Assembly (NCBI GenBank): GCA_017396365.1 | Contig: JAFQMD010000035.1 | Coordinates: 2,417-66,416, forward strand | Length of the DNA: 64,000 nucleotides | Direction: 5' to 3' | From: Clostridia bacterium | Lineage (GTDB): Bacteria; Bacillota; Clostridia; Christensenellales; Borkfalkiaceae | Part shown: one piece after another, positions 1,213-38,946 of the stretch | Numbering within the stretch: the stretch's first letter is position 1 | How the letters are laid out: each line of letters starts with the position of its first letter | Notes under the pieces: model-generated | The model's input: only the letters and a program-made list of their open reading frames with translations | What the model was told of the DNA's origin: nothing | Database searches by the model: none | Program-made: the position numbers and the translations under genes

Positions 1213-1401
1213 ACTAGGAGTTAAATCTTTTGTTATTTGTAAAATCTTTGCAAAACTGTCGTTTTGCTATAAAAATTGTAGTTTTTATACTTCTTGTTTG
1301 AAATATAGCGAAGTTGTCGTGCCTTGAAAGTATAGCGCTAACTTTTTATATTATAAAAATGATAACGTAACCGCAATTTCCGTATGAATTTTATGCAATG
1401 T

Positions 1402-1440
1402 AAAAGACTAACGAAAAAGTATTCGTTAGTCTTTTTTTTG
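1402..1440 (+). terminator. Rho-independent terminator
   Basis: AAAAGACTAACGAA / TTCGTTAGTCTTTT stem followed by a T-run. Confidence 0.75.
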
Positions 1441-1573
1441 CTTTGAAAAACATACGACTTTCATTTGAAAGAATAGTGTGCTACACTTTTGAAAATTTTT
1501 CCACAAAGAATATCAACTTTATAAATTTGAATTTGTCAGCCTGTATTGTTTAATACACAAAATATAGATTTGT

Positions 1574-2101
1574 CTAGGCAAGATTATTAATATAGTGTTC
1601 AGTAGCATTATCTTTCGGGATTATTTTACATGGATTTCCAATAACTATAGAGTGAGAGGGTACGTTGCAATTAACGTAAGAATTAGGCGCAATCAAAACA
1701 TCATCACCAATAGTGATATTTCCTACAATAGTTGAGTTAATTCCAATCCATACTTCATTTCCTATTGTAGGGGTTCCCTTACGAGTGCCGCGGTTTTCTT
1801 GTCCTATTGTAACACCCTTATGAATGTTAACATTTTTGCCTAAAATTGCGTTTTTGTTTATAGTAATATTATATGGGTGACCTATATACAAGCCTTTTCC
1901 TATCCTTGTATACGGAGAAATTTCTATACCGTGTTTGTTGCAAATTAGACGAAATCTAAGGTGATAATATTTTTGTAACACCTTGTTTTTGCAGGATGAG
2001 GTTTTTCTGAGATAATAGCTAAATTTGCGACAAAATCTTTGTATGCCGTTAGGTCCGTATCTATGCATATCGCCGTCGTACATTTCTTTAAAATTATTCA
2101 T
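1574..2101 (-). CDS. Hexapeptide-repeat O-acetyltransferase (serine acetyltransferase/WcaB-like)
   Basis: Left-handed beta-helix repeats (GKNVNIHKGVTIG, IGNEVWIGINSTIVGNITIGDDVLIAPNS). Confidence 0.7.
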   Translation of the reverse strand: MNNFKEMYDGDMHRYGPNGIQRFCRKFSYYLRKTSSCKNKVLQKYYHLRFRLICNKHGIEISPYTRIGKGLYIGHPYNITINKNAILGKNVNIHKGVTIGQENRGTRKGTPTIGNEVWIGINSTIVGNITIGDDVLIAPNSYVNCNVPSHSIVIGNPCKIIPKDNATEHYINNLA

Positions 2102-2187
2102 ATTTGCCAGGCTCTCTTCAAATTTTTATTTATCGACATCTTTATTGTAACATAAAATTCACTTTAATTCAATCTTTTTTATGTGGG

Positions 2188-2224
2188 TAAAAGAAAACTC
2201 GACTTATTAAAAATCGAGTTTTAT
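2188..2224 (-). terminator. Terminator of the pot operon
   Basis: AAAACTCGA / TCGAGTTTT hairpin. On the minus strand it is followed by CTTTT, directly after the potD stop. Confidence 0.65.
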
Positions 2225-2284
2225 AAATTATTCAATTTAAATATCTAAAAGTAACGCCTTTAGGTTGCTGTTTTTACTTTTAAA

Positions 2285-3904: not shown

Positions 3905-4710
3905 TATTTTCTACCCCCGTTTTTTGCTTGACCTTTGCTTGCAATAACGTTTTTAACTATAACCATTATTATAATTACTGCGAAAATTATGGTTGACAAA
4001 GCCCTAAGAGCGGGGACGTCCGCGCTTCTTCCGCCTTTAGCGTAAGCGTCGAAAACGAAAGTTGAAATGGTGTCAAAGGTCGCAGGCTTTGTAAAGGTCG
4101 TAATTATATAATCGTCGAGTGAAAGGGTAATAGCAATCAAAAAGCCCGAAAAAATACCCGGTAAAACCTGTGGAATAATTACTTTAAAAAGGGCTTGGGT
4201 TGGCGTTGCGCCAAGGTCTAACGCCGCTTCGTAAAGGTTTTTATCCATTTGTTTTAACTTTGGCGTTACGTTTAAAACTACGAACGGAAAAGTAAGTATT
4301 ACGTGTCCGATAAGAAGTGACGCGTACGTTCTGCCGAAGACGAACATAGTACATACGAGAGCGGTTGAAATAGCGGTAACGATTTCCGCGTTAATAACGG
4401 GGATTTGAGTTACGGTATTTAAGGTGTTTCTAACCCGTTTTCCGCTGTAAAACATACCTATTGCGCCCATCGTTCCCAAAACAGTTGAAATTATGCTCGA
4501 AACGAACGCTAAAATCAACGTGTTTACAACCGTAGTCATAAGGTCTTTACTTGAAAAAAGTTGTTTGTAAAGGTCAAGCGACCACTCGTCCGACCATTGA
4601 CCTATTATTTGCGAGTTGTTAAAACTGTAAACTGCAAGAAGTATTATCGGGGCGTATAAAAATGCGAGAACAAGCCAAATATAGCCCCTTTGGAAAAATT
4701 TCTTTACCAT
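3904..4710 (-). CDS. potC: Spermidine/putrescine ABC permease
   Basis: Six-TM MalFG-type permease with an EAA-like loop (EAALDLGATPTQALFKVIIP). Overlaps neighbours on both sides. Confidence 0.85.
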   Translation of the reverse strand: MVKKFFQRGYIWLVLAFLYAPIILLAVYSFNNSQIIGQWSDEWSLDLYKQLFSSKDLMTTVVNTLILAFVSSIISTVLGTMGAIGMFYSGKRVRNTLNTVTQIPVINAEIVTAISTALVCTMFVFGRTYASLLIGHVILTFPFVVLNVTPKLKQMDKNLYEAALDLGATPTQALFKVIIPQVLPGIFSGFLIAITLSLDDYIITTFTKPATFDTISTFVFDAYAKGGRSADVPALRALSTIIFAVIIIMVIVKNVIASKGQAKNGGRK

Positions 4711-5519
4711 AATCCACCCCCTCTTGCATCGGAAGAGTCTTCTTCGGAGAATTTACCCGTAACTATCATGGTTGCGAAAATTAAAACGAGAAGAATCATT
4801 GCGATTGCAGAGCCTGCGTTCCAGTTGTACATAACGCTAAACTGATTTTCGATGAGTTTGCCGATAATAGTAACGTTGCCGTTGCCGAGAGTGTCTGAAA
4901 CGACGTAACTCGTCATAGTAGGTAAAAGAACCATCGTAATAGCGCTTACTATTCCGGGCATAGAAAGTGGAATAGTTACTTTAAACATGGTTTGAAAGCC
5001 GTTTGCGCCAAGGTCGGCAGACGCTTCCAAAACGTTTTTATCAAGTTTTTCAAGCACGGTGTAGATAGGTAAAATAGTAAACGGCAAATAGTCGTAAACC
5101 ATACCTATTAAGGTGTTTATAAAACTCATATTGTTAGAACTAAACATTCCGAGTTTGTAGAGAAGTTCTTTCATAGCGGCAGTTCTTAAAACGAAGTTAA
5201 TCCACATAGGAAGAATAAAAAGCAGGAGCATTACGCCGTTTTTATTTACGTTAGTTCTCGCCAAGATATACGCCGCGGGATAGGCAATTAAAAGACATAT
5301 AGTCGTAGTAAGTATTGCAAGGGCAAAACTCATAAACAGCGCGGTAAGGTTTGCGTTACTTGTAAAAAAGTCTATAAAGTTAATAAAACTTAAACCTCCC
5401 GTTTCGGGGTCGGTAAAAGCGTAATAAATAATCAAAAGCAAGGGGAATACAACGAACATAGCCATAAAGAGCGCGTACGGTATTCCAAGATGCTTTCTCG
5501 AGAATTTAAGTGCCGTCAT
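4704..5519 (-). CDS. potB: Spermidine/putrescine ABC permease
   Basis: EAA loop EASADLGANGFQTMFKVTIP. Operon context. Confidence 0.85.
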   Translation of the reverse strand: MTALKFSRKHLGIPYALFMAMFVVFPLLLIIYYAFTDPETGGLSFINFIDFFTSNANLTALFMSFALAILTTTICLLIAYPAAYILARTNVNKNGVMLLLFILPMWINFVLRTAAMKELLYKLGMFSSNNMSFINTLIGMVYDYLPFTILPIYTVLEKLDKNVLEASADLGANGFQTMFKVTIPLSMPGIVSAITMVLLPTMTSYVVSDTLGNGNVTIIGKLIENQFSVMYNWNAGSAIAMILLVLIFATMIVTGKFSEEDSSDARGGGLW

Positions 5520-7021
5520 TTTTGATTTACCGCCTTTAATTTAAGTTTGATCTTATCCTTTGGAATTTTAACCGAAACCCTGTCGTTTTCATTCCAAACG
5601 TATTCGGTATCGACTACGAAATCTTCTTCCTCGTCGTCAGTTCTTATAATGATTTGGTAGTGGTCGCCCTTGTAAACTATTGAAATGATAGTTCCGCAAG
5701 CGTCGCCGTCAACGTCGTTATCTATAATTTCAATATCTTTAAGCCCAACTTCAACTTTTACGTCAACGTCGTTAAGGTCGAGTTTTTCGCCGTTTTCAAG
5801 TACGAGATAGCCTTCTTCGTCAAGGTGAGAATTTTCATAAAGTTGTGTAACGTCGCACTCAAACTCGCCGTCGGCAAAGCATACGTTGTTGCGCTTGTTT
5901 ATATAACCGTCGTATCGGTTGCAGTCGAATTCCTTAGCCATTATATGAATATCGTCAGGGCGGATATGTATCGAACATTTTTCGCCTTCTTTACGCTCGA
6001 TAGTGTCTTGAATTAAAACTTCGGTCTTACCTACTTTAAAGGTCATTTCGTAGTGAACGCCTTTAAAAATCGACGAGATAATAACTCCGTCAACCATACC
6101 TTTGCCTTCGTCGGCTAAAAATACGTCTTCTGGGCGAACGACGACGTCGACTTTTTCGTTTATCGGGAAATCGTCCACGCAGTCGAATACGCGGTTGATA
6201 AATCTTACTTTTCTATTGCCAACCATCGTGCCTGAGAAGATGTTGCTTTCGCCTATAAAGTCGGCAACGAAAGAATTTTTAGGTTCGTTGTAAATGTCCT
6301 TCGGCGTGCCGATTTGCTGAATTGCGCCGTCTTTCATAACGACTATCGTATCGCTCATAGTAAGCGCTTCTTCTTGGTCGTGGGTAACGTAAATAAAGGT
6401 TATTCCAAGTTTTTGGTGCATCTCTTTAAGTTCGAGTTGCATATCCTTTCTCATTTTTAAATCTAAAGCGCCGAGAGGTTCGTCTAAAAGTAAAATTTCA
6501 GGCTCGTTTACGATAGCCCTTGCGATTGCAATACGCTGTTGTTGACCGCCCGAAAGGGTAGTTACGTCTCTCTTTTCAAATTCTTCAAGGTCAACCAGTT
6601 TTAAAACTTTTGAAACTTTTGCGTCGATAACTTCTTTAGAAAGTTTTTCAACCTTAGTTCTTTCCCTGCCTTTTTTGTCAACGTAAGTGTTTTTAAACCT
6701 TTTAAGTTTAAGCCCGTAGGCAATATTGTCGTAAACGTTAAGGTGTGGGAAAAGCGCGTAGCGTTGGAAAACCGTATTTATTGGTCTTTCATAAGGCGGA
6801 AGGTGGGTTATGTCTTTTCCGTTTAAAAGAATTTCACCTTCCGTTGGCATTTCAAACCCTGCAATCATTCTAAGAGTAGTTGACTTTCCGCATCCCGACG
6901 GTCCTAAAAAGGTAACGAATTCGCCTTTCCTTATATATAAATCCATTTTTTCAACGGCGACTTGACCGTTAAATTCTTTAACGACGCCTTTAAGTTCGAT
7001 AATTTTTTCTTTGTTTTCCAT
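5516..7021 (-). CDS. potA: Spermidine/putrescine ABC ATPase, long form
   Basis: Walker A GPSGCGKST, signature LSGGQQQR, Walker B LLLDEPL. The C-terminal TOBE-like region is duplicated or extended. Confidence 0.9.
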   Translation of the reverse strand: MENKEKIIELKGVVKEFNGQVAVEKMDLYIRKGEFVTFLGPSGCGKSTTLRMIAGFEMPTEGEILLNGKDITHLPPYERPINTVFQRYALFPHLNVYDNIAYGLKLKRFKNTYVDKKGRERTKVEKLSKEVIDAKVSKVLKLVDLEEFEKRDVTTLSGGQQQRIAIARAIVNEPEILLLDEPLGALDLKMRKDMQLELKEMHQKLGITFIYVTHDQEEALTMSDTIVVMKDGAIQQIGTPKDIYNEPKNSFVADFIGESNIFSGTMVGNRKVRFINRVFDCVDDFPINEKVDVVVRPEDVFLADEGKGMVDGVIISSIFKGVHYEMTFKVGKTEVLIQDTIERKEGEKCSIHIRPDDIHIMAKEFDCNRYDGYINKRNNVCFADGEFECDVTQLYENSHLDEEGYLVLENGEKLDLNDVDVKVEVGLKDIEIIDNDVDGDACGTIISIVYKGDHYQIIIRTDDEEEDFVVDTEYVWNENDRVSVKIPKDKIKLKLKAVNQK

Positions 7022-7040
7022 TTATCAAATCTCCTTAGTG

Positions 7041-7574
7041 TTAAAAAGTCGGTGGGCAACTTACCCAAATAAATTTTGCGTTTTTGTCCGTGGCGTTTTC
7101 TACGTAATGGTTTTTGCTCGCCGTGATGTAAAAACTTTCGCCCTTTTGACACTTGTGTTTTTTACTTCCGATATGAATAATTACAGTTCCGCTTAAAACG
7201 TAGCCGAATTCTTCGCCTTCGTGAGGGAAATCAAGTTCGGTTGACGAGTGGGGCTTAAGTTCTACCGATATAGGCTCCATCATGTTTTTTTGAGCGTTGG
7301 TAACTAGCCAAGATAAAGTAAAAGCGTCGGTTTGCTTTTCAATAAAGTCGTCGGCTTTAAAGACGATTTTTTCTTCTTGCTCTTCGGCAAAAAAGTCTTT
7401 AAGCGTCGTGCCAAGCGCGGACAAAATGTCTATTAACGTTGCTATAGACGGACTTGTAAGGTCATTTTCAAGTTGACTTATATAACCTTTCGTCAGTTCG
7501 CATCGGTTTGCCAGTTCTTCTTGCGTTAAGTTGTATTGATACCTTAGCGCTCTTATTTTTTTACCTATTTGCAT
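7041..7574 (-). CDS. XRE-family HTH plus cupin transcriptional regulator (PuuR-like)
   Basis: Start moved to MQIGKKIRALR, which has an AAAGGGGGAAAT RBS. The N-terminus has an HTH (LTQEELANRCELTKGYISQLE) and the C-terminus a cupin (GEEFGYVLSG...). It lies 20 nt upstream of potA. Confidence 0.8.
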   Translation of the reverse strand: MQIGKKIRALRYQYNLTQEELANRCELTKGYISQLENDLTSPSIATLIDILSALGTTLKDFFAEEQEEKIVFKADDFIEKQTDAFTLSWLVTNAQKNMMEPISVELKPHSSTELDFPHEGEEFGYVLSGTVIIHIGSKKHKCQKGESFYITASKNHYVENATDKNAKFIWVSCPPTF

Positions 7575-7852
7575 ATTTCCCCCTTTTGCCAAAGTAACCG
7601 TTTGATGATTTTTAGCACGTTGGCATTTAGAAAATTTAAACAAAAAGTTTAATAAAAGTAAACCTATTATACAAATAATGATAGACGATGTCAATCGTTT
7701 TAATATAAATATTTTATTAAATTTTTAATTTAAGTTCTAACTTTAAATTAGTGAAAATAATATTTAGCGTGATAATCTTTAAAATTCGACTTTTTTCTAC
7801 GAAATAAGCCGTTTTTGCTTAAAAAAATAATGATAAAATTAAGGGGTAAAAA

Positions 7853-8611
7853 GTGAAGGGAAAAATTAAAAAAATCATTGCGCTTAGTTGTAGTATTTTA
7901 GCGATTGTTTTATCGTCTGTAGTTTTAAAAACGAGCGGTAGTTATGCAGTTTATACCTTTGCTCAAAAAAATCGAGAGTTGCCTATTTATTGCGTTGATA
8001 GGTCGGACGGAAGGCTGTCTATTTCTTTCGACTGCGCGTGGGGGACGGAATATACCGATAAAATACTCGACGCGTTAGATTTCTACAAGGTTAAATGCAC
8101 TTTTTTTATGACGCAGTTTTGGGTGGAAAAATATCCCGATTACGTCAAAAAAATTTCCGAGCGTGGACACGAGATAGGCACACATTCTAAAACGCACTCG
8201 TATATGTCTAAAATGAACGCTGACGAGATAATGGACGAACTTACAACGTCGAGTTTAGCAATAGAAAAAATTACGGGCAAAAAGGTTACTCTTTTCCGTC
8301 CGCCGTACGGAGATTACGACGATTTACTTATAAAAACTGCAAGGGAAATGGGGATATATACTATTCAATGGAGCGTAGATTCTCTTGACTGGAAAGATTT
8401 GTCTGCAAGTCAAATTGCAAGTAGAATTTTAAAAAAGGCAGAGTCGGGCAGTATAATTCTTTGCCACAACAACGGGCTTCACACCGCCGAAAGTCTATCG
8501 CTTATTTTTTCTGCTTTAATAGAAAAAGGGCTTATTTTTGAACCTATAGGCTCACTTATCTATAAAACGGATTACAAAATAGACCACAGCGGAAAGCAAA
8601 TATTAAATTGA
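7853..8611 (+). CDS. Polysaccharide deacetylase (NodB domain), PdaB-like
   Basis: Motifs SFDCAWG, HEIGTHSKTH, RPPYGDY and LCHNNG. GTG start with an AAGGGG RBS. Confidence 0.75.
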   Translation: MKGKIKKIIALSCSILAIVLSSVVLKTSGSYAVYTFAQKNRELPIYCVDRSDGRLSISFDCAWGTEYTDKILDALDFYKVKCTFFMTQFWVEKYPDYVKKISERGHEIGTHSKTHSYMSKMNADEIMDELTTSSLAIEKITGKKVTLFRPPYGDYDDLLIKTAREMGIYTIQWSVDSLDWKDLSASQIASRILKKAESGSIILCHNNGLHTAESLSLIFSALIEKGLIFEPIGSLIYKTDYKIDHSGKQILN

Positions 8612-8628
8612 AAAACTAAAGGAGTTTT

Positions 8629-9324
8629 ATGATTAACGAAGACAAGCAAAACAACAGAGTATTTTTAAAAGGTGAAATTGTAACGGAAGCAAAGTTTTCT
8701 CACGAAGTGTACGGCGAAGGCTTTTACGAAATGGACGTTTTAGTTAAAAGACTTTCAGGTCAAGCGGACGTGTTGCCCGTAACTATTTCGGAAAGGCTAA
8801 TAGAGAGCAACGATTTAAAAGTAGGCGCGTCTCTTTGCGCGGTCGGACAGTTTAGGAGTTACAATAAGTTAGTTGACGGAAAGAGCAAACTTATGCTTAC
8901 CGTTTTCGTAAGAGAAGTCGTCAAGGATATAGGCGCGAAAAATCCTAATAATATAGTGTTATCGGGATATATTTGTAAACCGCCCGTATATAGAACGACT
9001 CCCTTTTCAAGAGAAATTGCCGACGTTTTAATCGCGGTGAATAGAGCCTACAATAAATCCGACTATATCCCGTGTATAGCGTGGGGAAGAAACGCCCGTT
9101 TTGTAAAAAATCTCGCCGTAGGCGAGAAGATTGCTTTAGCAGGGCGTATTCAAAGTAGGGAATATACGAAGAAGTTGTCTGAAAATCAAACTAAAATAAT
9201 GACGGCTTACGAAGTTTCCATTTGTAAACTTGCCGCATACGATAACGTTGAGTGTTTTGATTTAGACGAAGAATTCGGCGTCAACTTTTTAGAGAGAGAA
9301 ACGCCTTTAACCGATATAGTGTAG
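8629..9324 (+). CDS. SSB-like protein with two tandem OB folds
   Basis: The second half (NNIVLSGYICKPPVYRTTP...IPCIAWGRNARFV...GEKIALAGRIQSREY) follows the SSB OB-fold pattern. The first half repeats that pattern more weakly. Confidence 0.45.
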   Translation: MINEDKQNNRVFLKGEIVTEAKFSHEVYGEGFYEMDVLVKRLSGQADVLPVTISERLIESNDLKVGASLCAVGQFRSYNKLVDGKSKLMLTVFVREVVKDIGAKNPNNIVLSGYICKPPVYRTTPFSREIADVLIAVNRAYNKSDYIPCIAWGRNARFVKNLAVGEKIALAGRIQSREYTKKLSENQTKIMTAYEVSICKLAAYDNVECFDLDEEFGVNFLERETPLTDIV

Positions 9325-9346
9325 TAAAATTTATTCATTGTCCGTA

Positions 9347-9381
9347 GTCCGTACGCGCTTGCGCGTGCGGACGTTTTTTTA
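9347..9381 (+). terminator. Rho-independent terminator
   Basis: GTCCGTACGCGC / GCGTGCGGAC stem followed by T7. Confidence 0.75.
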
Positions 9382-9399
9382 TAAAACGCTAATAATATA

Positions 9400-9428
9400 T
9401 TGAAATTTTAAAATTAGTGTGATATAAT
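9400..9428 (+). promoter_or_regulatory. Sigma-A type promoter
   Basis: TTGAAA, then a 17-nt spacer, then TGaTATAAT (extended -10). Confidence 0.6.
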
Positions 9429-9484
9429 ATTATACAATCTATGATATTCCTTGAAAACAAGGGATGTTTTACGGGAGGTAAATT

Positions 9485-9961
9485 ATGAAAAATATGAAAA
9501 AAAGGCTTTTAATAGGCGCAATAGTTCTTTCTATCGCGGTAGTAGTTTCGGCTGTCGTAGTGTTTATTCTCGCTATGGCTAACGTTTTACCTGCAAAGCC
9601 GTTCAAACTTTGCTTTGCCGTTTTAACTCTCGGTATAGGCGCGATTTTTGCAGTTTACGGCGCAGTCGTAAAGGGAGGATATGAAACGGCCGTAGGCTTT
9701 ATTTTACTTACGATAGGCGTAGTAATAGTTCTCGTAGGCGTTGTTGAGTGGTACGTAATTTTACTCATAGCGTGCGCAATGATCGTCGTTGGGCTTTTGA
9801 TTTTAATGCTTAGCAAAGCGGATAGCATGCAAATTACGACGACCGACCAAGATCCAAATTTCAAGCCGTATTCGGAAGTTTTAGAAGAGAAAAAAGAGCA
9901 GGATAAAATAAAGGAGTCCGAACCACTTCCTGAACTTAAAGATTACTCTAAAAAGGACTGA
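9485..9961 (+). CDS. Small integral membrane protein with charged C-terminal tail
   Basis: About four hydrophobic helices, then a K/E-rich tail. GGAGG RBS. Confidence 0.6.
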   Translation: MKNMKKRLLIGAIVLSIAVVVSAVVVFILAMANVLPAKPFKLCFAVLTLGIGAIFAVYGAVVKGGYETAVGFILLTIGVVIVLVGVVEWYVILLIACAMIVVGLLILMLSKADSMQITTTDQDPNFKPYSEVLEEKKEQDKIKESEPLPELKDYSKKD

Positions 9962-20607: not shown

Positions 20608-21423
20608 ATGAATTACGATCAAAATTTGCACACCCACACGGCGTTTAGCGACGGAAAAGACCAAATGGAAGATATGGTAAAACACGCTATAAAACTTGGG
20701 TTTAAAAGCATAGGTTTTTCTGACCACGCAAATATGGGGTTTGAAGTTACAGGCGCAATGACGAGAGAAAACGTTGCAAAAAGTTTACAGACTTCAAAGG
20801 CTTTAAAAGAAAAGTATAAAGGGCAAATATCCGTCTTTTGCGGACTTGAAAACGACCTGTTCTCAACTCAAGATTTATCGCCTTACGACTACGTTATAGG
20901 CTCTTGCCATTGCCTTATAAAAGACGGGGAAATTATAGAGTTTGACGGCAAGAAAGACCACGTTAAAGGGGTTATAGACAGACTTTTTAACGGAAACGGT
21001 ATGGACTTTGCCGAGTGTTATTACTCTACTTTTTCTCGCCTTGCGGAAACTTCTCGCATAGATATAGTAGGACACGCAGATTTGGTTACTAAGCACTCGG
21101 AGAGAGAGCAGTTTTTCGATTGCGACGGTAAAGCGTATAAAGAGTTTGCTTTAAAAGCGATAAAAAAAGTGTTTGAAAGGTGTCAAGTTTTTGAGATAAA
21201 CACGGGCGCTATTGCAAGGGGATATAAAACTGCGCCGTATCCCGCGCCGTTTATTATGCAAGAATTGAAAAGGTTGGGCGCGAAAATGGTAATTTCATCC
21301 GATTGCCACGATAAAAATTTTTTGGACTGCCAGTTTGATAGCGCGCTATCGTACGCTAAGAGTTTTGGTTTTGACAAAATCTATAAATTCGACGGAAAAT
21401 TCTTCGTAGGATTTGATTTGTAA
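20608..21423 (+). CDS. PHP-family phosphoesterase (histidinol-phosphatase HisJ/HisK-like)
   Basis: N-terminal NLHTHTAFSDGK metal motif, later GFSDH, SCH and GHADL motifs. Confidence 0.7.
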   Translation: MNYDQNLHTHTAFSDGKDQMEDMVKHAIKLGFKSIGFSDHANMGFEVTGAMTRENVAKSLQTSKALKEKYKGQISVFCGLENDLFSTQDLSPYDYVIGSCHCLIKDGEIIEFDGKKDHVKGVIDRLFNGNGMDFAECYYSTFSRLAETSRIDIVGHADLVTKHSEREQFFDCDGKAYKEFALKAIKKVFERCQVFEINTGAIARGYKTAPYPAPFIMQELKRLGAKMVISSDCHDKNFLDCQFDSALSYAKSFGFDKIYKFDGKFFVGFDL

Positions 21424-21443
21424 ATTGAAAAATTACAATCGAA

Positions 21444-21473
21444 TTGACAAAAAGGTCGTTCCTATGATAAAAT
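21444..21473 (+). promoter_or_regulatory. Sigma-A type promoter
   Basis: TTGACA, then an 18-nt spacer, then TGaTAAAAT. Confidence 0.6.
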
Positions 21474-21493
21474 AAAGAAAAAGAGGTAAAAAT

Positions 21494-22135
21494 ATGCCTG
21501 TAGAAAACGTAAAGAAAGTTGCATCAAAAAATTCAAATTTAATGCTTAGAGTTGCTGAAGGTCACTTTGCAACCAGCCATAGCCATATCAATTACTATAT
21601 TGACGTTACTATGCAAAAGACGAGATTGTCAGAAGCAAAAGCCGTTGCCACCGCTTTGGTGTCTTATTATAGAGCGAATACCGTAATCGACACTATTTTA
21701 TGTCTTGACGGAATGCAAGTAGTAGGCACTTGCGTAGCCGACGAACTTACACGTAGCAATTTTATGAATATAAACGCGCACAACACTATTTACGTAATTA
21801 CTCCCGAGCATACTTCGGGCAGTCAACTTCTTTTAAGAGATAACATTGCCCAAGCGGTAAGGGGTAAAAACGTTCTCATTTTGGCGGCGTCGGTTACGAC
21901 GGGTTATACGGCAAGTTCGGCAATCGAAGCCGTTAAATACTACGGTGGAAACGTCGCTGGAGTAAGCGCAATTTTCGCAACGGTTGACGAGTGTATGGGT
22001 TATGAAGTTCATTCAGTTTTCGACCCCAAAGATTTAGGCGAATACGCGTCTTACCCCGCTCATCAATGTCCGCTTTGTAAACAAGGTAAAAAAATAGATG
22101 CGCTTGTGAATAGTTTTGGCTACTCCAAAATTTAA
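21494..22135 (+). CDS. Phosphoribosyltransferase-fold protein with degenerate PRPP loop
   Basis: Type-I PRT layout, but the PRPP loop reads VLILAASVTTGYTA, with no acidic pair. Compare [13 protein letters not shown] in this window's PyrE. There is a C-terminal CPLC. Confidence 0.65.
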   Translation: MPVENVKKVASKNSNLMLRVAEGHFATSHSHINYYIDVTMQKTRLSEAKAVATALVSYYRANTVIDTILCLDGMQVVGTCVADELTRSNFMNINAHNTIYVITPEHTSGSQLLLRDNIAQAVRGKNVLILAASVTTGYTASSAIEAVKYYGGNVAGVSAIFATVDECMGYEVHSVFDPKDLGEYASYPAHQCPLCKQGKKIDALVNSFGYSKI

Positions 22136-22257
22136 AGGCTTATATACTTCGGTATGCTTTGTTTCTACTTTAAGCCCCAAACCACAATGACCAACAAGGT
22201 CTATTGTGCCTTGTGTCTTAAAGTGAGCCTTGCCTACCTCGCATCTAAGCCTTTAAA
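22131..22257 (+). repeat. 127-nt long-hairpin element, copy A1
   Basis: 12-bp terminal inverted repeat TTTAAAGGCTTA / TAAGCCTTTAAA. Nested helices: GGTATGC/GCCTACC, ACTTTAAG/CTTAAAGT, CACAAT/ATTGTG, GACC-aacaa-GGTC. The TAA stop of the upstream gene lies inside the left repeat. Confidence 0.9.
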
Positions 22258-22320
22258 TGCTACTCGATAGGGGTATGAAAAAAACGGATGCAACGTCACG
22301 TTGCTCTATCCCATCCGTAA

Positions 22321-22362
22321 AAGTCTTACGAGCCTTGGCTAACTCGCATCTAAGCCTTTAAA
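22321..22362 (+). repeat. 3'-arm remnant of the hairpin element
   Basis: AAGTCTTACGAGCCTTGGCTAACTCGCATCTAAGCCTTTAAA matches the 3' arm of the 32008 copy. Confidence 0.75.
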
Positions 22363-22365
22363 TAC

Positions 22366-22492
22366 TTTAAAGTCTTATATACTTCGGTATGCTTTGTTTC
22401 TACTTTAAGCCCCAAACCACAATGACCAACAAGGTCTATTGTGCCTTGTGTCTTAAAGTGAGCCTCGCCTACCTCGCATCTAAGCCTTTAAA
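22366..22492 (+). repeat. 127-nt long-hairpin element, copy A2
   Basis: Differs from A1 at 2 of 127 positions. It lies 235 nt downstream of A1. Confidence 0.9.
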
Positions 22493-22600
22493 TGCTACTC
22501 GATAGGGGTATAGAAAAACACGTCTGCAACGTCACGTTGCTCAATCAAACCCTTGTCAATAAAATTGTCCTATCCTAACTCATTTCAAATATTAACCATA

Positions 22601-22632
22601 ATAAAAGCGTTGGCACTAAAAATTGCCAACGC
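22601..22632 (-). terminator. Terminator of the small Zn-ribbon gene
   Basis: GCGTTGGCA / TGCCAACGC hairpin, followed by TTTTAT on the minus strand. Confidence 0.7.
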
Positions 22633-22650
22633 CTTTAAATTTATGTGATT

Positions 22651-22887
22651 TTATTCGTGAATTTCCCAGTCGTACCCACTCCAAGTCATATACCGTATCT
22701 TTTTACTACAAGCGGGGCATTTTATTACGAAATAATCGTCGTCAAAGCCTGGAACTATATGGTATTCAATTCTACCCTTTCCGCAAAGACATTTATACTC
22801 CGTAACGCGTGTCGCCACGTTTGCTCCTTTTGGTAAATCTTCTCTTCTGTCTATCTTTTCAGTAGGTTGAATAGTTCTGCTAGCCAT
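22651..22887 (-). CDS. Small four-cysteine (zinc-ribbon-like) protein
   Basis: CLCG ... CPAC pairs, AAAGGAGAAA RBS, own terminator. Confidence 0.5.
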   Translation of the reverse strand: MASRTIQPTEKIDRREDLPKGANVATRVTEYKCLCGKGRIEYHIVPGFDDDYFVIKCPACSKKIRYMTWSGYDWEIHE

Positions 22888-22988
22888 ATGTTTCTCCTTT
22901 GACCTAATTTAAGCAAATTATATCATTTAAAAGTTGTTAAGTCAACGCAAAAAGGTTAAAAATTTTGACTTATATATGAAATATATAA

Positions 22989-23017
22989 TTGACAAGACGG
23001 CTTATATTTGCTATAAT
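22989..23017 (+). promoter_or_regulatory. Sigma-A type promoter of the pyr operon
   Basis: TTGACA, then a 17-nt spacer, then TATAAT, about 33 nt before the pyrC ATG. Confidence 0.7.
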
Positions 23018-23049
23018 ATCCCCAATAACCAAAGAAAGAGGTAGCCAAA

Positions 23050-24273
23050 ATGGGAACTTTTGTATCAAAGGTAACTGCAAACAAGTCTGCATTACAAGCT
23101 TTAAACGGTTGTTACAAAGGTTTTTCTTTTGATTTTGGCGCATTATCTTCTAAAATTGACGATTTAGTTATTTTTCCCGGTTTTTGCGACGTGCACGTGC
23201 ATTTTCGTGAGCCGGGTTTTTTTTATAAAGAAAGCATTGAAACGGGTTCAAAATGTGGCGCAAGGGGCGGTTATACGGCGGTTTGCACTATGCCAAATTT
23301 AAACCCCGTACCAGACAGCGTTGAAAATTTAAAAATTCAGTTAGACCTTATAGAAAAATCTTCGGTAATAAACGTCTATCCGTACGGCTCGATAACCGTA
23401 GGGCAAAAGGGCGAAATTCTTGCCGATTTAGACGGGATGAAAGATTTAGCGATTGCTTTTTCGGACGACGGGCGAGGCGTTCAGTCTGACGAAATGATGC
23501 AAACTGCAATGAAAAAGGCAAAGGCTCTCGGTAAAATGATAGTTGCCCATTGCGAAGTCAACTCGCTTTTAAAGGGCGGATATATTCACGACGGGGAGTA
23601 TTGCAAAACCCACGGACATAAAGGTATATGTTCTGCAAGCGAATACGAACAAATTGCTCGCGACTTAAAACTCGTTGAAAAAATCGGTTGTTCGTACCAC
23701 GTTTGCCACATATCGACAAAGGAAAGCGTCGAACTTATAAGGCAGGCAAAAGCGCGTGGGCTTGACGTGAGTTGTGAAACCGCGCCACACTATCTCGTTT
23801 TAGACGACGGCGACTTGCAAGAGGACGGCAAGTTTAAAATGAATCCGCCACTTCGAGGAGTAGAAGACAGGCTTGCGTTAATCGAAGGGATAAAAGACGG
23901 AACGATAGATATGATTGCAACCGACCACGCCCCTCACTCGAAAGAAGAGAAGTCTAGAGGGCTTTCGGGTAGCGCGTTTGGAATAGTAGGGCTTGAAACG
24001 GCGTTTGCGGTATGCTATACGAAACTTGTAAAAACGGGCGTGATTACGCTTGAAAAACTTATAGATTTACTTGCTATAAATCCGAGAAAACGCTTTAATA
24101 TCCCACTTGGAAACGATTTTTCGGTTTGGGATTTAAATAGATGTTTCACGGTAAACCCTGAAGAATTTTTATCAAAAGGTAGGGCGACTCCGTTTGAGGG
24201 TGAAGAACTTTTCGGCGTGAATTTAATGACGGTAGTAGATGGAAAAACCGTATATTTAGAAAAGAAAATTTGA
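23050..24273 (+). CDS. pyrC: Dihydroorotase
   Basis: DVHVHFREPG metal motif and DHAPH near the C-terminus. pyr operon context. Confidence 0.9.
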   Translation: MGTFVSKVTANKSALQALNGCYKGFSFDFGALSSKIDDLVIFPGFCDVHVHFREPGFFYKESIETGSKCGARGGYTAVCTMPNLNPVPDSVENLKIQLDLIEKSSVINVYPYGSITVGQKGEILADLDGMKDLAIAFSDDGRGVQSDEMMQTAMKKAKALGKMIVAHCEVNSLLKGGYIHDGEYCKTHGHKGICSASEYEQIARDLKLVEKIGCSYHVCHISTKESVELIRQAKARGLDVSCETAPHYLVLDDGDLQEDGKFKMNPPLRGVEDRLALIEGIKDGTIDMIATDHAPHSKEEKSRGLSGSAFGIVGLETAFAVCYTKLVKTGVITLEKLIDLLAINPRKRFNIPLGNDFSVWDLNRCFTVNPEEFLSKGRATPFEGEELFGVNLMTVVDGKTVYLEKKI

Positions 24274-29114: not shown

Positions 29115-29812
29115 TGGGTAAAGACGTTATTATCGCTTGCGATTTTGACAGTAAGCAAAAGACTTTGGATTTTTTAGACAAGTTTACGGGCAGAAAGCCG
29201 TTTGTAAAAATCGGTATGGAACTTTTTTATGCCGAAGGTCCTGCTATCGTAAAGGAAATCAAGGCAAGGGGACATAAAATATTCCTTGACCTTAAACTTC
29301 ACGATATTCCAAACACCGTAAAAAAATCAATGGCGGTTTTGTCCCGTCTTGACGTTGATATGACCAACCTTCACGCCGGCGGAACTATCCGTATGATGCA
29401 AGGCGCTATCGAAGGATTGACAAGACCTGACGGAACTCGTCCGCTTTTAATTGCCGTAACTCAACTTACTTCTACCGACGAAGAGAGTATGAGAAAAGAT
29501 CTTTTAATTGAAAAGCCTATTGACGAAGTAGTTATGCACTACGCTCACAACGCTAAAATCGCAGGGCTTGACGGAGTAGTTTGTTCTCCGCTTGAGGCTG
29601 GCAAAGTTCACGGCGTTTGCGGTGAAAAGTTCTTGACCGTTACCCCAGGCGTAAGATTTGCAGACGGAGACGTAGGTGACCAAAAGAGAGTTATGACTCC
29701 TGCCGAAGCAAAGAAAATCGGCTCGGACTATATCGTAGTAGGTCGTCCTATTACTGCAGCAGAAGATCCTGTTGCGGCTTACGAAAGATGTATTGCCGAG
29801 TTCGTCGGCTAA
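29114..29812 (+). CDS. pyrF: Orotidine-5'-phosphate decarboxylase
   Basis: DLKLHDIPNTV and IVVGRPIT motifs. Confidence 0.9.
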   Translation: MGKDVIIACDFDSKQKTLDFLDKFTGRKPFVKIGMELFYAEGPAIVKEIKARGHKIFLDLKLHDIPNTVKKSMAVLSRLDVDMTNLHAGGTIRMMQGAIEGLTRPDGTRPLLIAVTQLTSTDEESMRKDLLIEKPIDEVVMHYAHNAKIAGLDGVVCSPLEAGKVHGVCGEKFLTVTPGVRFADGDVGDQKRVMTPAEAKKIGSDYIVVGRPITAAEDPVAAYERCIAEFVG

Positions 29813-29934
29813 AAAAGTTTATAAGCGTCGCAATACTGTGTTTCTACTTTAAAGGCTAAACCCCGATGACCAAAGAGGTCTATCGTGTCTTATCCTTTAA
29901 AGTGAGCCTTGTCTTGCTCGCTTCTAACCTTTTT
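29811..29934 (+). repeat. Long-hairpin element, copy C (124 nt)
   Basis: Same architecture as A1, with compensated helices GCAATAC/GTCTTGC and CGAT-GACCaaagaGGTC-t-ATCG. It fills the pyrF-pyrE spacer. Confidence 0.85.
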
Positions 29935-29971
29935 AAGCATAAATTATAAAAACCTTATGAGGAGTAATAAG

Positions 29972-30629: not shown

Positions 30630-31718
30630 ATGAAAAGAAGTGTAATTGACACCGTTGATTTGACCGTAGAAGAACTCGACGGAATTATTCAAACTGCGTG
30701 TGATATAAGTGAAAATCCACAAAAGTATGCCGACAGATGTAAGGGCAAAAAACTCGCTACGCTTTTTTTTGAGCCGTCAACAAGAACTCGTCTTTCATTT
30801 GAGGCGGCAATGCTCGAACTCGGCGGTAGTGTAATCGGTTTTTCCGAGGCGAGCAGTTCTTCCGCGGCAAAGGGCGAAAGCGTTGCCGATACGGCAAAGG
30901 TTATAAGTTGCTACGCGGATATTATCGCAATGCGCCATCCCAAAGAAGGCGCTGCTTACGTCGCTGCTAAAAACGCGACTATTCCGCTTATAAACGCTGG
31001 CGACGGAAGTCATTGTCATCCAACTCAAACGCTTGCCGATCTACTTACCATTTACAGAGAAAAAGGTCGATTAAATAACTTATCGGTAGGCTTTTGCGGT
31101 GATTTGAAGTACGGAAGAACAGTTCATTCGCTTATAAACGCCCTTTCTAGATATGAAGGAATTAAAATCGTTTTAATTTCTCCCGAAGAACTTAAACTTC
31201 CAAAATATATCAAAGAAGACGTGCTTGAAAAGAATAAAATGCCTTACGTTGAAACCGCCGATTTAGAAGGTTCTTTAAAGGATTTAGATATTCTTTATAT
31301 GACGAGAATTCAACGCGAGAGATTTTTTGATGCCGAAGAATACGAAAGACTTAAAGACAGTTACGTTTTAACTGCTGAAAAAATGCAGTTTGCAAAAGAT
31401 GATACTTGCGTTTTGCACCCACTCCCGAGAGTAAACGAAATTAGCGTTAAAGTTGACGACGACAAAAGGGCGTGCTATTTTAAACAAGTATTAAACGGCA
31501 AATATATGCGTATGGCGCTCATATTGAAACTTTTAGAAGACGAAAAGAACGGAGTTTTGCCAACCCATACCGAAGACGGCGTCGTGGTTAATAAAATCAA
31601 ATGCAAAAACCCGAGATGTATAACTTCGGTAGAACAAGAATTAGACCATAAATTTATCCCGACCGAAAAGGACGGAGTTTATAAATGTATCTATTGCGAA
31701 AGCGAAGAAAAATTATAA
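30630..31718 (+). CDS. pyrB: Aspartate carbamoyltransferase catalytic chain fused to a PyrI-type zinc domain
   Basis: STRTR, HPTQ and HPLPR motifs of ATCase. The last 45 or so aa, [13 protein letters not shown]...[10 protein letters not shown], match the Cx4C...CxxC zinc domain of the regulatory chain. Confidence 0.85.
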
Positions 31719-31870: not shown

Positions 31871-31885
31871 ATTGTCGTAAAAGGT

Positions 31886-31975
31886 TTTCTGCGACTGACG
31901 GATTACGTGGTACACCACGGTGAAACGGAAAACCGTTCGGGTTAAAACCCATTTTGCCGACCGTCTGGGCGCACT
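31886..31975 (+). promoter_or_regulatory. ZTP (pfl-motif) riboswitch aptamer
   Basis: GACUGACGGA, CGUGGuaCACCACGG, a linker with two small hairpins, then CCGACCGUCUGGGCG. This matches my recollection of the pfl consensus (ACUGGCG / GUGG..CCAC.GG / CCGCCUGGGC). It lies upstream of purine genes. Confidence 0.8.
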
Positions 31976-32007
31976 GAGTTCTTTGCAGAACGAGTGCGCC
32001 CTTTTTG
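31967..32007 (+). terminator. Riboswitch expression-platform terminator
   Basis: GGGCGCACT / AGTGCGCCC stem followed by TTTTTGTTT. The 5' strand overlaps the aptamer's CUGGGCG. Confidence 0.8.
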
Positions 32008-32134: not shown

Positions 32135-32266
32135 CGTTTATATATGGCTTATAAACTGCGTTATGCGTCGTTTCTGCAAAGTAAAACCGATTGGGATGAC
32201 CAAAGAGGTCTATCCCACCCGCTTTTTCTTTGCGAGCCTTGCCTAACTTGTTTCTAATCCTTTAAA
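32129..32266 (+). repeat. Long-hairpin element, copy D2 (138 nt, small 5' insertion)
   Basis: Helices GTTATGC/GCCTAAC, GCAAAG/CTTTGC and TGGGAT-GACCaaagaGGTC-t-ATCCCA. It shares its TTTAAA end with D1. Confidence 0.85.
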
Positions 32267-32347
32267 CGTTTATATATGGCGTATGCGTCGTTTCTGCAAG
32301 TGTTTGCCGACTAAGATGACCAATAACGAGCCTTGGCTAACTCTTAA
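32261..32347 (+). repeat. Decayed copy D3 of the hairpin element
   Basis: The 5' arm and GATGACCAA are retained. The apical 3' half is deleted and joined to CGAGCCTTGGCTAACTC. Confidence 0.7.
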
Positions 32348-32407
32348 CTGACCAAGAGAAAGATTATTAAGCCCAAAAGAAAAATTATTAAGGAGTTTAC
32401 ATAAATT

Positions 32408-37526: not shown

Positions 37527-38711
37527 GTGAAAGAATTTGCATTAAAATACGGTTGTAACCCAAATCAAAAACCATCGAGAATATATATGGCTGACGGCAC
37601 CGAACTTCCAGTAGAAATTTTGAACGGAAGACCGGGATATATCAATTTCCTTGACGCGTTCAACTCTTGGCAACTCGTCAAAGAACTTAAAGAGGCTACG
37701 GGAATGGTATGCGCAACGAGTTTCAAGCACGTTTCCCCGACGTCTGCGGCAGTAGGTAAAAAACTTTCTGAAAAACTTAAAAAATCGTGCTTTGTTGACG
37801 ATATCGAAGGATTAGACGACTCTCCGCTCGCTTGCGCTTACGCAAGGGCAAGGGGAACTGACAGAATGTCGTCTTTCGGCGACTGGATTGCTTTATCCGA
37901 CGAGTGCGACGTAGTAACTGCTAAAATAATCGCTCGTGAAGTTTCCGACGGCGTAATTGCTCCGTCTTATTCTAAAGAAGCGCTTGAAATTCTTTGCGCT
38001 AAGAGAAAGGGAACTTACAACGTAGTTAAAATCGATCCTAATTTCGTTCCTGCCGAAATCGAAACTAAGCAAGTTTACGGCATTACTTTCGAGCAAGGTA
38101 GAAACAACTTTAAAATTGATAGAGAACTTTTACAAAATATCGTAACTGCAAACAAGAATTTACCCGAAGATAAGGCAATCGACCTTATTATTTCTCTCAT
38201 CACTTTAAAATACACTCAGTCAAATTCAGTATGTTTTGCCACCGACGGACAAGCAATCGGCGTAGGCGCAGGTCAACAGTCGAGAATACATTGTACTCGT
38301 CTTGCAGCGCAAAAGGCTGACCTTTGGCATCTCCGTATGCACGATAAGGTTTTAAATCTTCAATTTGCCGACGGCGTAGGCAGACCTGAAAAGAACAACA
38401 TTATCGACATTTATCTTTCTGACGACTGCGACGAAGTTTTAGCAGAAGGTAAGTGGCAACAATATTTTGCAGTAAAACCAGAAGAATTTACGAGAGAAGA
38501 AAAAGCAGAATACCTTAAAACCATTACTGGAGTTTCCTTAGGTTCTGACGCGTTTTTCCCATTCTCAGACAATATAGAAAGAGCATTCCGTAGCGGAGTA
38601 TCCTACGTAGCCGAACCAGGTGGTTCAGTTCGTGACGATTTAGTTATCAAAGCGGCTGATGATCACGATATGGTAATGGCATTTACTGGGATGCGTTTGT
38701 TCCACCACTAA
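37527..38711 (+). CDS. purH: AICAR formyltransferase (PurH without the MGS-like cyclohydrolase domain)
   Basis: 394 aa. It begins in the AICARFT region (ALKYGCNPNQ) and ends MRLFHH. GTG start. Confidence 0.85.
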   Translation: MKEFALKYGCNPNQKPSRIYMADGTELPVEILNGRPGYINFLDAFNSWQLVKELKEATGMVCATSFKHVSPTSAAVGKKLSEKLKKSCFVDDIEGLDDSPLACAYARARGTDRMSSFGDWIALSDECDVVTAKIIAREVSDGVIAPSYSKEALEILCAKRKGTYNVVKIDPNFVPAEIETKQVYGITFEQGRNNFKIDRELLQNIVTANKNLPEDKAIDLIISLITLKYTQSNSVCFATDGQAIGVGAGQQSRIHCTRLAAQKADLWHLRMHDKVLNLQFADGVGRPEKNNIIDIYLSDDCDEVLAEGKWQQYFAVKPEEFTREEKAEYLKTITGVSLGSDAFFPFSDNIERAFRSGVSYVAEPGGSVRDDLVIKAADDHDMVMAFTGMRLFHH

Positions 38712-38712
38712 T

Positions 38713-38839
38713 TTTAAAGGCTTATATACTTCGCACACCTTCGTTTACTGTTTCGCCCTCAAAATCTTGGTGAACGAAAAGTTCTACCAAGTCTTTTCGG
38801 GCTCACGAGCCTCGGTGTGCTCGCATCTAAACCTTTAAA
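38713..38839 (+). repeat. 127-nt long-hairpin element, copy E1
   Basis: TTTAAAGGCTTA...TAAACCTTTAAA ends. Helices GCACACC/GGTGTGC and CTTGGT-GAACgaaaaGTTC-t-ACCAAG. It starts 2 nt after the purH stop. Confidence 0.9.
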
Positions 38840-38840
38840 C

Positions 38841-38946
38841 ACATAAAACTTTGCAAAAGGGCGTTTCTGCATTGTTTTTCAAACCCCGATGACCTCGTCG
38901 CAAATCGACTTTTTGTCAGCAAGTTTTCTAACTTGCAAGACCTTTC
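38841..38946 (+). repeat. Decayed copy E2 of the hairpin element
   Basis: GCGTTTCTGCATTGTTTTTCAAACCCCGATGACC matches 5'-arm sequences of copies C and D2. The 3' part has diverged. Confidence 0.5.

Follow-up and report, generated by a model that had tools for sequence, protein, structure and literature searches.

The stretch analysed here, 64 kb of contig JAFQMD010000035.1 from a Clostridia bacterium (assembly GCA_017396365.1, contig positions 2,417 to 66,416; called the window throughout), contains six full copies of a 127-nt imperfect palindrome, all of them on the + strand. We consider this unit to be probably a non-autonomous mobile composite repeat, specific to its lineage, which inserts after (T)TTAA/TAA, expands in tandem, exchanges blocks with other copies and is carried in mRNAs. 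The family is apparently undescribed, being without a match in Rfam or among plasmid, phage and E. coli sequences, and the literature on repeats of Christensenellaceae gave nothing.

Copies of the unit in the window

The six copies (A1, A2, B, C1, C2 and D; Table 1) were found in agreement by a direct-repeat search, a covariance model and nhmmer, and the covariance model run with its filters off found no further copies in the 64 kb. Although the unit is nearly palindromic, the strand call is robust, the covariance model giving the window units 124-145 bits in the + orientation and 25-47 bits in the opposite one. For a 21-base pattern taken from the unit's 3' portion there are seven matches in the window, against an expectation of 0.00. 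Four spacers are occupied: between a phosphoribosyltransferase-like (PRT-like) gene and pyrC, between pyrF and pyrE, between a ZTP riboswitch and purE (after pyrB), and between purH and glyA.

An initial annotation of this DNA had described the family as confined to the + strand of four spacers, and the repeat search, the covariance model and nhmmer all agree with it; the identities it gave to the flanking genes were also right. Its copy list stands as regards the existence of the family and has to be corrected in the details: the full copies are six and not five, unit B runs from 29810 to 29936 (given as 29811-29934), and a start placed at 32129 was wrong by 11 nt, unit C2 lying at 32140-32266. 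The tandem pair A1/A2, with its two differences, was as described, A2 being a recent 235-nt segmental duplicate; the 3'-arm remnant between the two was recovered by nhmmer, and the nested hairpin ACGGATG-GCAACGtcaCGTTGC-CATCCGT is present in the sequence at 22284-22318. Of the decayed copies, C3 lies upstream of purE (32408), and its placement by nhmmer overlaps the end of C2.

The unit is bounded by a 12-nt terminal inverted repeat, TTTAAAGGCTTA...TAAGCCTTTAAA, whose conservation is at least 90% in 148 copies, as in a classical MITE (miniature inverted-repeat transposable element). The consensus of these 148 distinct copies reads tTTAAAggcTTATataCttCG-nnann-ctnCGTTtCTg-(variable 5' arm)-ACnnngaTGACC-aanaA-GGTCTAtcnnntC-(variable 3' arm)-gcGAGCCTtg-nctnn-CTcGnaTCTAanCCTTTAAA. 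Besides the ends, the conserved parts are the junctions CGTTTCT and GAGCCTTG, the tip ATGACC-AACAA-GGTCTAT and a set of unpaired bases, while the helices called P2, P3 and P4 in the initial annotation are the three variable ones. AACAA is the commonest tip loop; copies B and C2 carry the tip variant GACCAAAGAGGUC. The long hairpins into which the window copies fold have energies of -35 to -43 kcal/mol (z-scores from -5.0 to -7.1), and 0 of 200 shuffles did as well.

Distribution in related genomes

An exact-pattern scan of a species-representative genome collection returned at least 105 loci (as 8-kb pieces, cited below by L number) in at least 13 assemblies; all counts given for this sample rest on the matches listed. 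All of the listed assemblies are metagenome-assembled genomes (MAGs) whose labels are Christensenellaceae, Clostridiales or Clostridia and whose source is the gut of ruminants and humans. Their loci hold about 165 copies by the covariance model (about 160 of them full), or 254 nhmmer hits when fragments are included, arranged in 122 arrays. These genomes are close relatives, roughly at genus level, to judge by their flanking proteins, which share 83-98% identity with the window's. Moreover, exact-protein look-ups found the window's locus on contigs of several gut metagenomes and on MAG contig JAZSGO010000043.1 (GCA_045532785.1), which has a different array and therefore represents a different strain of the window's organism. 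Searches of viral contigs and of phage and plasmid collections found nothing similar and no phage or plasmid carrier.

The 78 complete genes upstream of arrays in the listed loci span 122 Pfam families, the largest of which has at most four members; among them are SRP54/FtsY, SecA, SecDF, EngA, rubrerythrin, radical SAM, NifU and FakA. The proposed restriction to nucleotide-biosynthesis operons is refuted by these unrelated housekeeping neighbours, and the exclusive occurrence in pyr and pur spacers is an accident of this window. It had been suggested together with that restriction that the unit is a nucleotide-biosynthesis regulatory RNA, for instance a PyrR-like or purine-responsive binding site, a reading which we find scarcely credible. 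All six window copies do lie in pyr/pur spacers, and the tip variant of B and C2 looks somewhat PyrR-loop-like, the Rfam scan giving no PyrR match for it; however, the neighbours in other genomes are unrelated housekeeping genes, the pyr/pur sites are empty in close relatives which keep the same operons, neither PyrR nor any other Rfam model matches even at E up to 10, and the commonest tip loop is AACAA and not the variant of B and C2. A PyrR site at the tip GACCAAAGAGGUC was ruled out as a candidate by the genome-wide distribution and the lack of a model match. Over the whole window, Rfam at gathering thresholds matched the ZTP riboswitch only, and over 21400-23100, with E up to 10, it gave nothing relevant and no PyrR, in line with the earlier statement that the unit matches no known RNA family.

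Dispersal, empty sites and differences between strains

Among the listed loci, pairs of copies at least 95% identical were 51 of 1309 within genomes versus 20 of 9866 between genomes, with unrelated 5' flanks, and copies up to 98-99% identical stand at unrelated loci on different contigs of one genome. The 5' boundary of the near-identical groups is sharp at TTTAAAGG, whereas on the 3' side the common stretch extends through a small tail (described below), which these dispersed copies thus have in common as well.

Orthologous spacers were found both empty and filled. Between pyrF and pyrE, L039 and L002 have an empty site of 12-20 nt, the window and L040 a filled one, and L009 an internally deleted remnant of about 50 nt; the site between the ZTP riboswitch and purE is empty in L039. 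The spacer between carB and the next gene is empty (9-12 nt) in the window, L002 and L085, holds one unit with tail and palindrome in L009 and contains arrays in L066 and L039, while that between purH and glyA is occupied in the window, L008, L056 and L035, in the last three by two to three copies of differing subfamily. In filled alleles the last codon runs into TAA and then into the body of the unit (GC-T-TAA-AGGCTTAT, GAT-TAA-AGTCTTAT), which indicates an insertion point directly after (T)TAA.

Turnover is also seen between strains. Contigs with an identical 213-aa upstream protein and nearly identical flanks carry different arrays, consisting of two copies set apart (the arrangement in the window), a directly abutting pair of other subtypes, or three copies; one strain copy equals A1 except for a whole contiguous central tract which comes from another subtype. 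A chimeric unit (L106 3769-3895, L109 2680-2806) has arms of two subtypes joined in the conserved tip, does not form the long hairpin and scores 55 bits, against about 110 for its neighbours, and it provides direct evidence of unequal recombination within arrays. All six strains with an identical PyrF carry unit B. The near-identical dispersed copies, the empty orthologous sites and the strain differences in copy number are signs of a mobile repeat. The initial description of a repeat family with MITE-like ends holds.

An old, immobile sequence, multiplied by nothing but tandem duplication in place and by ectopic recombination or gene conversion, could account for arrays which change between strains by unequal recombination and block conversion, for half units (see below) which amplify in tandem, and for the lack of a transposase in about 780 kb of loci and 670 open reading frames (ORFs). 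We hold it to be very unlikely, as it does not fit 98-99% identical copies with unrelated 5' flanks on different contigs, occupied sites set against clean empty sites of 9-20 nt in relatives, or the common insertion point at TAA.

Orientation and position at stop codons

Strict orientation, noticed at first in the window, is confirmed in the listed loci, where 133 hits between co-directional genes are sense and 0 antisense, and no 8-kb locus has units on both strands. The 5' end of the unit faces the upstream gene, and 62 of 96 arrays with a same-strand upstream gene begin between -5 and +5 nt from the end of its stop codon. In 20 of those arrays the TAA is formed by bases 3-5 of the unit, within its TTTAAA; six more ORFs stop at unit bases 13-15, and in convergent spacers, which are roomier, 9 of 12 arrays likewise lie near the stop. 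The adjoining stops (61 cases) are TAA in 59, TAG in 2 and TGA in 0, the background frequencies being 77%, 6% and 17%, respectively. A frameshift signal, made up of a UUUAAAG slippery heptamer and the hairpin, was also considered and rejected by inspection: the 20 arrays read TT/TAA in frame, and few ORFs enter the unit.

The place of the units in the transcript was deduced from stop codons, predicted promoters and terminators. Terminator-like GC hairpins with T-runs stand behind arrays in L092, L079, L018 and L082 and also at locus A (the A1/A2 spacer), which places the units inside transcription units, in 3' untranslated regions (UTRs) or intercistronic spacers; C1-C3 follow the terminator of the ZTP riboswitch and precede the ribosome-binding site of purE. 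The terminator scan flagged 0 of 6 window units, which end in CCTTTAAA and not in a GC stem followed by a T-run. Four arrays of the listed loci (L012, L099, L031 and L082) lie in divergent spacers. In two of these, the orthologous L012 1285-1411 and L099 1900-2163, 11 nt separate the beginning of the unit from the opposite-strand gene's start codon; either the leader of this gene reads the unit antisense or the unit supplies its promoter.

The polarity could follow replication rather than transcription, and about 85% of the coding sequence of the window, by the ORF list, is on one strand. GC skew is positive on the unit strand in 100 of 106 loci, yet it tracks each gene's own strand and so cannot separate the two processes; the 37 opposite-strand spacers within loci are uninformative in this respect, about one unit being expected there and none seen. 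A rule based on replication only predicts antisense units in lagging-strand operons; if such spacers amounted to roughly 8-15% of the co-directional ones, about 10-20 of the 133 hits would be antisense, and 0 were. The polarity is therefore more simply explained by a rule linked to transcription, or by additional selection against copies in antisense.

These positions bear on a rival explanation, by which the unit is a host-selected cis-acting RNA module, serving in protection from 3' exonucleases, as an RNase III-type processing site, or in termination or ribosome recycling at the adjoining stop, and mobility merely distributes the module. The constant sense orientation between co-directional genes, the location within 5 nt of a stop, upstream of terminators and inside transcripts, and the occupation of the purH-glyA spacer in all four genomes compared agree with such a role, for which there is precedent in ERIC, Correia and BOX elements, which affect co-transcribed mRNAs (background section of PMC3049150). 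It is less easily reconciled with presence or absence varying among close relatives inside essential operons, with neighbour genes of no common function, or with the unit of L012/L099, which at 11 nt upstream of a divergent start codon would be antisense in the leader.

Pairing and covariation

RNAalifold applied to the six window copies gave 44 pairs, 24 of which show a compensated double change. Over the 148 distinct copies 91.6% of cells pair, compared with 71.9% in shuffles and 30-47% with slid partners, so the earlier observation that the helices vary in sequence yet keep pairing is well founded. Both-sided changes amount to about 1290 cells versus about 30 for one-sided (wobble) changes, and outside two invariant U.G pairs there are 32 G.U cells versus 58 A.C cells; pairing restricted to Watson-Crick pairs is what DNA or inherited blocks would give. 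The helices occur as perfectly complementary haplotypes which many copies have in common, P2 having 12 of them, P4 having 8 and P3 at least 19, with P3 and P4 tightly linked and P2 partly reshuffled against both.

In strains with nearly identical flanks a whole contiguous central tract is swapped, and because the helices are nested, such an exchange moves both arms together and keeps complementarity without selection. Compensated double changes do occur at orthologous sites (C1 versus L002/L009, D versus L056/L035); these are indistinguishable from copy replacement, since other places in the L002 genome hold copies with 98-99% identity to the one concerned. The covariation is thus very strong, Watson-Crick only, and largely explained by subfamily inheritance and contiguous-block exchange. 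Its use as proof of selection on an RNA, proposed in the initial annotation, is weakened by the few G.U pairs, the scarcity of one-sided changes, the inheritance of haplotypes and the swapping of tracts, and the compensatory changes make a poor case for a functional RNA. Some selection is still needed, since crossovers at the tip yield mismatched chimeras and yet most copies pair well; it could act on copying ability instead of host function.

For the RNA module introduced above, the conserved unpaired bases and the two invariant U.G pairs (C.A mismatches on the other strand) are points in favor, while the missing wobble signal (with A.C cells outnumbering G.U cells outside the fixed pairs) and the persistence of chimeric non-pairing copies and half units speak against it; we regard this explanation as possible, though unlikely.

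Watson-Crick-only pairing is also expected for DNA, as in a folded single-strand recombination site of the attC type, used by a site-specific recombinase. Integron attC sites and the 123-126-nt VCRs are similar in architecture and polarity, and the unit would suit such a site in its size, in being an imperfect palindrome whose unpaired bases are conserved, in having variable stems and in its gene-oriented position behind ORFs. Nevertheless, we judge this highly improbable: the ends are TTTAAAGGCTTA/TAAGCCTTTAAA and not RYYYAAC...GTTRRRY, the neighbours are core genes (purH, carB, secA, ftsY) which are in place with or without the unit, units stack head to tail without intervening genes, and there is no integrase among the window ORFs examined. 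The end sequences and the immobile core neighbours were the grounds for rejecting it.

Accompanying modules

The units form head-to-tail arrays of 1-5 in the listed loci, with no genes between stacked units, and several other short modules accompany them. Behind the last unit of 43 of 94 listed arrays there is a tail of about 22 nt with a small hairpin (consensus about ACTYGAWMAAGRGT, of the ACTY...RGT type), and 33 of the 94 also have, within 60 nt, a palindrome resembling repetitive extragenic palindromes (REP-like) or the module GCGTCGCAA... The REP-like palindrome is 15 nt long, GCAACG-TCA-CGTTGC or the compensated variant GGAGCG-TCA-CGCTCC, and usually has GG[A/G]T ahead, so that with its leader it reads GG[A/G]T-GCAACGTCACGTTGC. 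It was found 117 times in the listed loci, with the TCA loop on the unit strand in 109, and it sometimes forms short tandem runs (CGTCACGTTGCCGTCACGTTGCCGTCA in L016). Palindrome, 3' arm and tail together make up a 'half unit', which repeats with a period of about 119 nt; 62 of the 87 internal partial copies are 3' parts, mostly with the REP-like palindrome directly ahead.

The module GTCGCAAATCGACTTTTTGTCA, which in the window breaks off a 5'-half fragment of the unit (38897-38918), recurs behind arrays at many listed loci. Its general form is GTCGCAA(A/C)(T/A)CG(G/A)(C/T)TTTTTGTCA (L030, L003, L002, L031 and others), often followed by a hairpin of the CCGTTTGCC...GGCAAACGG type. A separate module, GAACTATGGCGGTAGCAAT, stands ahead of many REP-like palindromes in SVIB loci. 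Several repeat families thus pile up in the same spacers of these genomes.

Proposed mechanism of insertion

From the dispersal, polymorphism, arrays, polarity and stop-codon position observed above we infer the insertion chemistry and the type of enzyme. Insertion would take place at a (T)TTAA(A)/TAA site, most visibly at TAA stops, by an enzyme encoded elsewhere. One candidate is a DDE transposase which duplicates TA/TTAA, as this would fit a unit with terminal inverted repeats and with a palindromic TTAA at either end; another is a strand-specific Y1/RAYT-like enzyme acting on a folded single strand, which would fit the polarity of all modules, the TTAA just 5' of the body, the hairpin at the 3' end and the repeat-free 3' junction in L009. 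Arrays grow by tandem duplication and unequal recombination, and the hairpin would persist because only foldable copies propagate and because the exchange of central tracts keeps the arms matched. Each copy would put a stable hairpin of about 50 bp behind the stop codon of an mRNA, and could in this way alter 3' stability, processing or termination efficiency; such an effect on the host is presumably a side effect and not the reason for the existence of the family.

Several observations weigh against a mobile repeat of this kind. No mobilising gene was found in the window or in the about 780 kb of listed loci, a weak negative as these cover 2-3% of each genome: there are no multi-copy ORFs in the 780 kb, an HUH...Y motif is present in 0 of 670 ORFs, and no terminal repeat stands beside an ORF in the loci and the window. 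The palindromic TTAA/TTTAAA of the ends could be a target-site duplication, but the inserted block of L009 (unit, tail and REP-like palindrome) has no repeat at its 3' junction. Half units occur in tandem and cannot form the long hairpin, so local amplification does not depend on it. Cut-and-paste MITEs do not usually show absolute polarity, for which some additional cause is required. The loop, the junction sequences and several mismatches are strongly conserved; to judge from the sequences, a protein that recognises DNA or RNA is suggested by the fixed mismatches and by the conservation of unpaired bases.

A parent insertion sequence with the same 12-bp ends, envisaged in the initial annotation as the mark of a plain MITE, was likewise not found in the 780 kb of element-adjacent DNA and the window. 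The ten window ORFs at 382-9961 are ordinary housekeeping genes, with no mobilising gene among them.

In a variant of the proposed mobile repeat, polarity and stop position are part of the mechanism, the 3' boundary of TAA-terminated ORFs being targeted in sense orientation, via single-stranded DNA exposed by transcription or replication or via a transcript step; or else the host has domesticated the family as a genome-wide module which sets, for possibly hundreds of genes, how stable the mRNA 3' end is or how efficient termination is, the figure being extrapolated from six copies in 64 kb. This we consider distinctly unlikely.

Locus A and other features of the window

At locus A the order is A1, tail, palindrome, 3' arm, A2, tail and palindrome, followed by a terminator-like hairpin (Table 1). 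The PRT-like ORF ends inside A1, whose TTTAAA provides the TAA stop (22133-22135), and given the terminator-like hairpin at 22602-22637 the whole A array lies within the 3' UTR of this gene.

Table 1. Coordinates of the hairpin units, accompanying modules and other features in the window.
Feature	Position	Strand	Remarks
Unit A1	22131-22257	+	full; covariance model 144.8 bits; fold -42.6 kcal/mol, z -7.05
Unit A2	22366-22492	+	full; 98% identical to A1 (2 differences)
Unit B	29810-29936	+	full; between pyrF and pyrE, overlapping the pyrF TAA stop
Unit C1	32008-32134	+	full; begins right behind the T-run of the ZTP riboswitch terminator
Unit C2	32140-32266	+	full; 5' end degenerate, ATATAT replacing TTTAAA
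Unit D	38713-38839	+	full; begins 1 nt past the purH TAA stop
C3, decayed copy with internal deletion	32267-32360 (covariance model, 13.6 bits) or 32261-32349 (nhmmer)	+	end points approximate
3'-arm remnant ('half unit')	22304-22362	+	nhmmer, model positions 69-127; fused directly to the REP-like palindrome
5'-half fragment	38861-38894	+	broken off by the recurrent module at 38897-38918
Tail with small hairpin TACTC-GATAG-GGGTA (22261-22275)	22258-22283	+	sequence
REP-like palindrome GCAACG-TCA-CGTTGC (22290-22304) in outer stem ACGGATG/CATCCGT	22284-22318	+	
Second tail and second REP-like palindrome (22526-22540)	22493-22540	+	sequence
Terminator-like hairpin closing the PRT-like gene transcription unit	22602-22637		terminator scan
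Predicted promoter, PRT-like gene	21444-21473		
Predicted promoter, pyrC	22989-23017		
PRT-like gene	21494-22135	+	213 aa
78-aa ORF	about 22652-22888	-	no family match
ZTP riboswitch	31881-31977		55.4 bits; terminator to about 32007
Aspartate carbamoyltransferase catalytic-chain ORF	30630-31718	+	362 aa
purH	37527-38711	+	394 aa
SSB-family protein	8629-9324	+	231 aa

The PRT-like gene, just upstream of the pyr operon, gives weak matches to PyrE and adenine phosphoribosyltransferase models (E 1e-9 to 1e-5) and is without a recorded Pfam match; it is apparently monocistronic, with a strong promoter-like site and the terminator-like hairpin. A 78-aa ORF conserved among the strains lies between this terminator and the pyrC promoter, and was called in contigs L106 and L107 of these strains. 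Upstream of purE, inserted hairpin units and other repeats (about 400-900 nt) separate the ribosome-binding site from the T-run of the ZTP terminator in the window, L002 and L009, while in L039 purE stands directly behind the riboswitch. In the aspartate carbamoyltransferase ORF residues 319-360 match the regulatory subunit PyrI (PF02748 PyrI_C was also recorded), so that the gene looks like a PyrB-PyrI(C-domain) fusion. The purH product comprises only the AICAR (5-aminoimidazole-4-carboxamide ribonucleotide) formyltransferase part, with an end-to-end match to PRK07106, and the ORF does not include the IMP cyclohydrolase part. The SSB-family protein has its SSB domain at residues 107-189, behind an N-terminal extension of about 100 residues.

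Significance and comparison with known repeats

With the unit, an uncultured and little-studied lineage of gut bacteria gains a new repeat family, which has some practical consequences. Units break or confuse MAG assemblies, many loci ending inside arrays; they should be masked before riboswitch or small-RNA searches in these genomes; and they are usable as strain markers, because the copy number differs between strains with nearly identical flanks. Their polarity and attachment to TAA offer a clean natural system for the site choice of interspersed hairpin repeats, and the pyr, pur and car operons, which have natural alleles both carrying and lacking a unit, provide a basis to ask whether a 50-bp hairpin at the stop alters the fate of an mRNA. 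No new class of nucleotide-metabolism regulation is opened by these results.

The closest known system in behavior is the BOX element of Streptococcus pneumoniae (boxA-(boxB)n-boxC), which is modular and co-transcribed and encodes the stop codon of 36 genes (PMC3049150). Both BOX and the present unit are found in a Gram-positive host, are composite and modular with variable tandem internal modules, have extensive secondary structure, are co-transcribed (the unit by its predicted position), often overlap gene 3' ends and provide their stop, and have no firmly assigned dedicated transposase. They differ in that the repeated module here is the 127-nt hairpin itself, in that our sample has no antisense copy between co-directional genes, and in the host, here uncultured Christensenellaceae-like gut bacteria; no relationship in sequence is expected.

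REPINs, which are mobilised by RAYT/TnpA-REP, also consist of long hairpins with compensatory changes and form tandem clusters (PMC3116915). They resemble the unit in their conserved ends with a less conserved, compensated middle, in inserting beside existing copies and in persisting in a lineage (PMC3116915), and a small REP-like palindrome (GG[A/G]T followed by GCAACG-TCA-CGTTGC) accompanies the units here. However, the 127-nt unit is not made of two inverted copies of the small palindrome, which lies outside it; its conserved ends are non-palindromic and are equalled in conservation by the motifs of the tip and the junctions, and neither a RAYT gene nor a gene flanked by inverted units was found in the listed loci, which make up 2-3% of each genome.

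Size, imperfect palindrome, terminal inverted repeats, intergenic location and co-transcription (predicted for the unit) are features common to the unit, to ERIC/IRU ('RU-1') of enterobacteria and to Correia/NEMIS of Neisseria. AT-rich insertion targets are a further likeness, the target being TA for Correia. Those families occur in both orientations and typically without head-to-tail arrays, unlike the polar family described here, and a blastn search with 11-base words for similarity to ERIC in 5,426 E. coli genomes gave nothing. ERIC too is 127 bp long (PMC2759123), and both ERIC and Correia are reported to change mRNA stability via RNase E or RNase III (background section of PMC3049150).

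The stacking of modules in fixed orders (hairpin unit, tail, REP-like palindrome, GTCGCAAATCGGCTTTTTGTCA, GAACTATGGCGGTAGCAAT) recalls the BIMEs of E. coli, whose REPs alternate in orientation, whereas here the orientation is constant for each module; nor are the modules related to them in sequence. Palindrome-associated elements derived from IS200/IS605 ('peel and paste') are alike in their polar insertion, in lacking a demonstrable target duplication, in the TTAA 5' of the left end and in the right-end hairpin. The orientation of IS200/IS605 has been shown to follow the replication fork (PMC5027513), and by analogy that of the unit could do the same. Unlike them, the unit has a body that is one long palindrome and not two small subterminal hairpins, and no Y1 transposase was found among 670 ORFs. 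The unit belongs with the small interspersed structured repeats, next to BOX, REPIN, ERIC and the Correia-type MITE; its polarity and its attachment to TAA stop codons are unusually strict.

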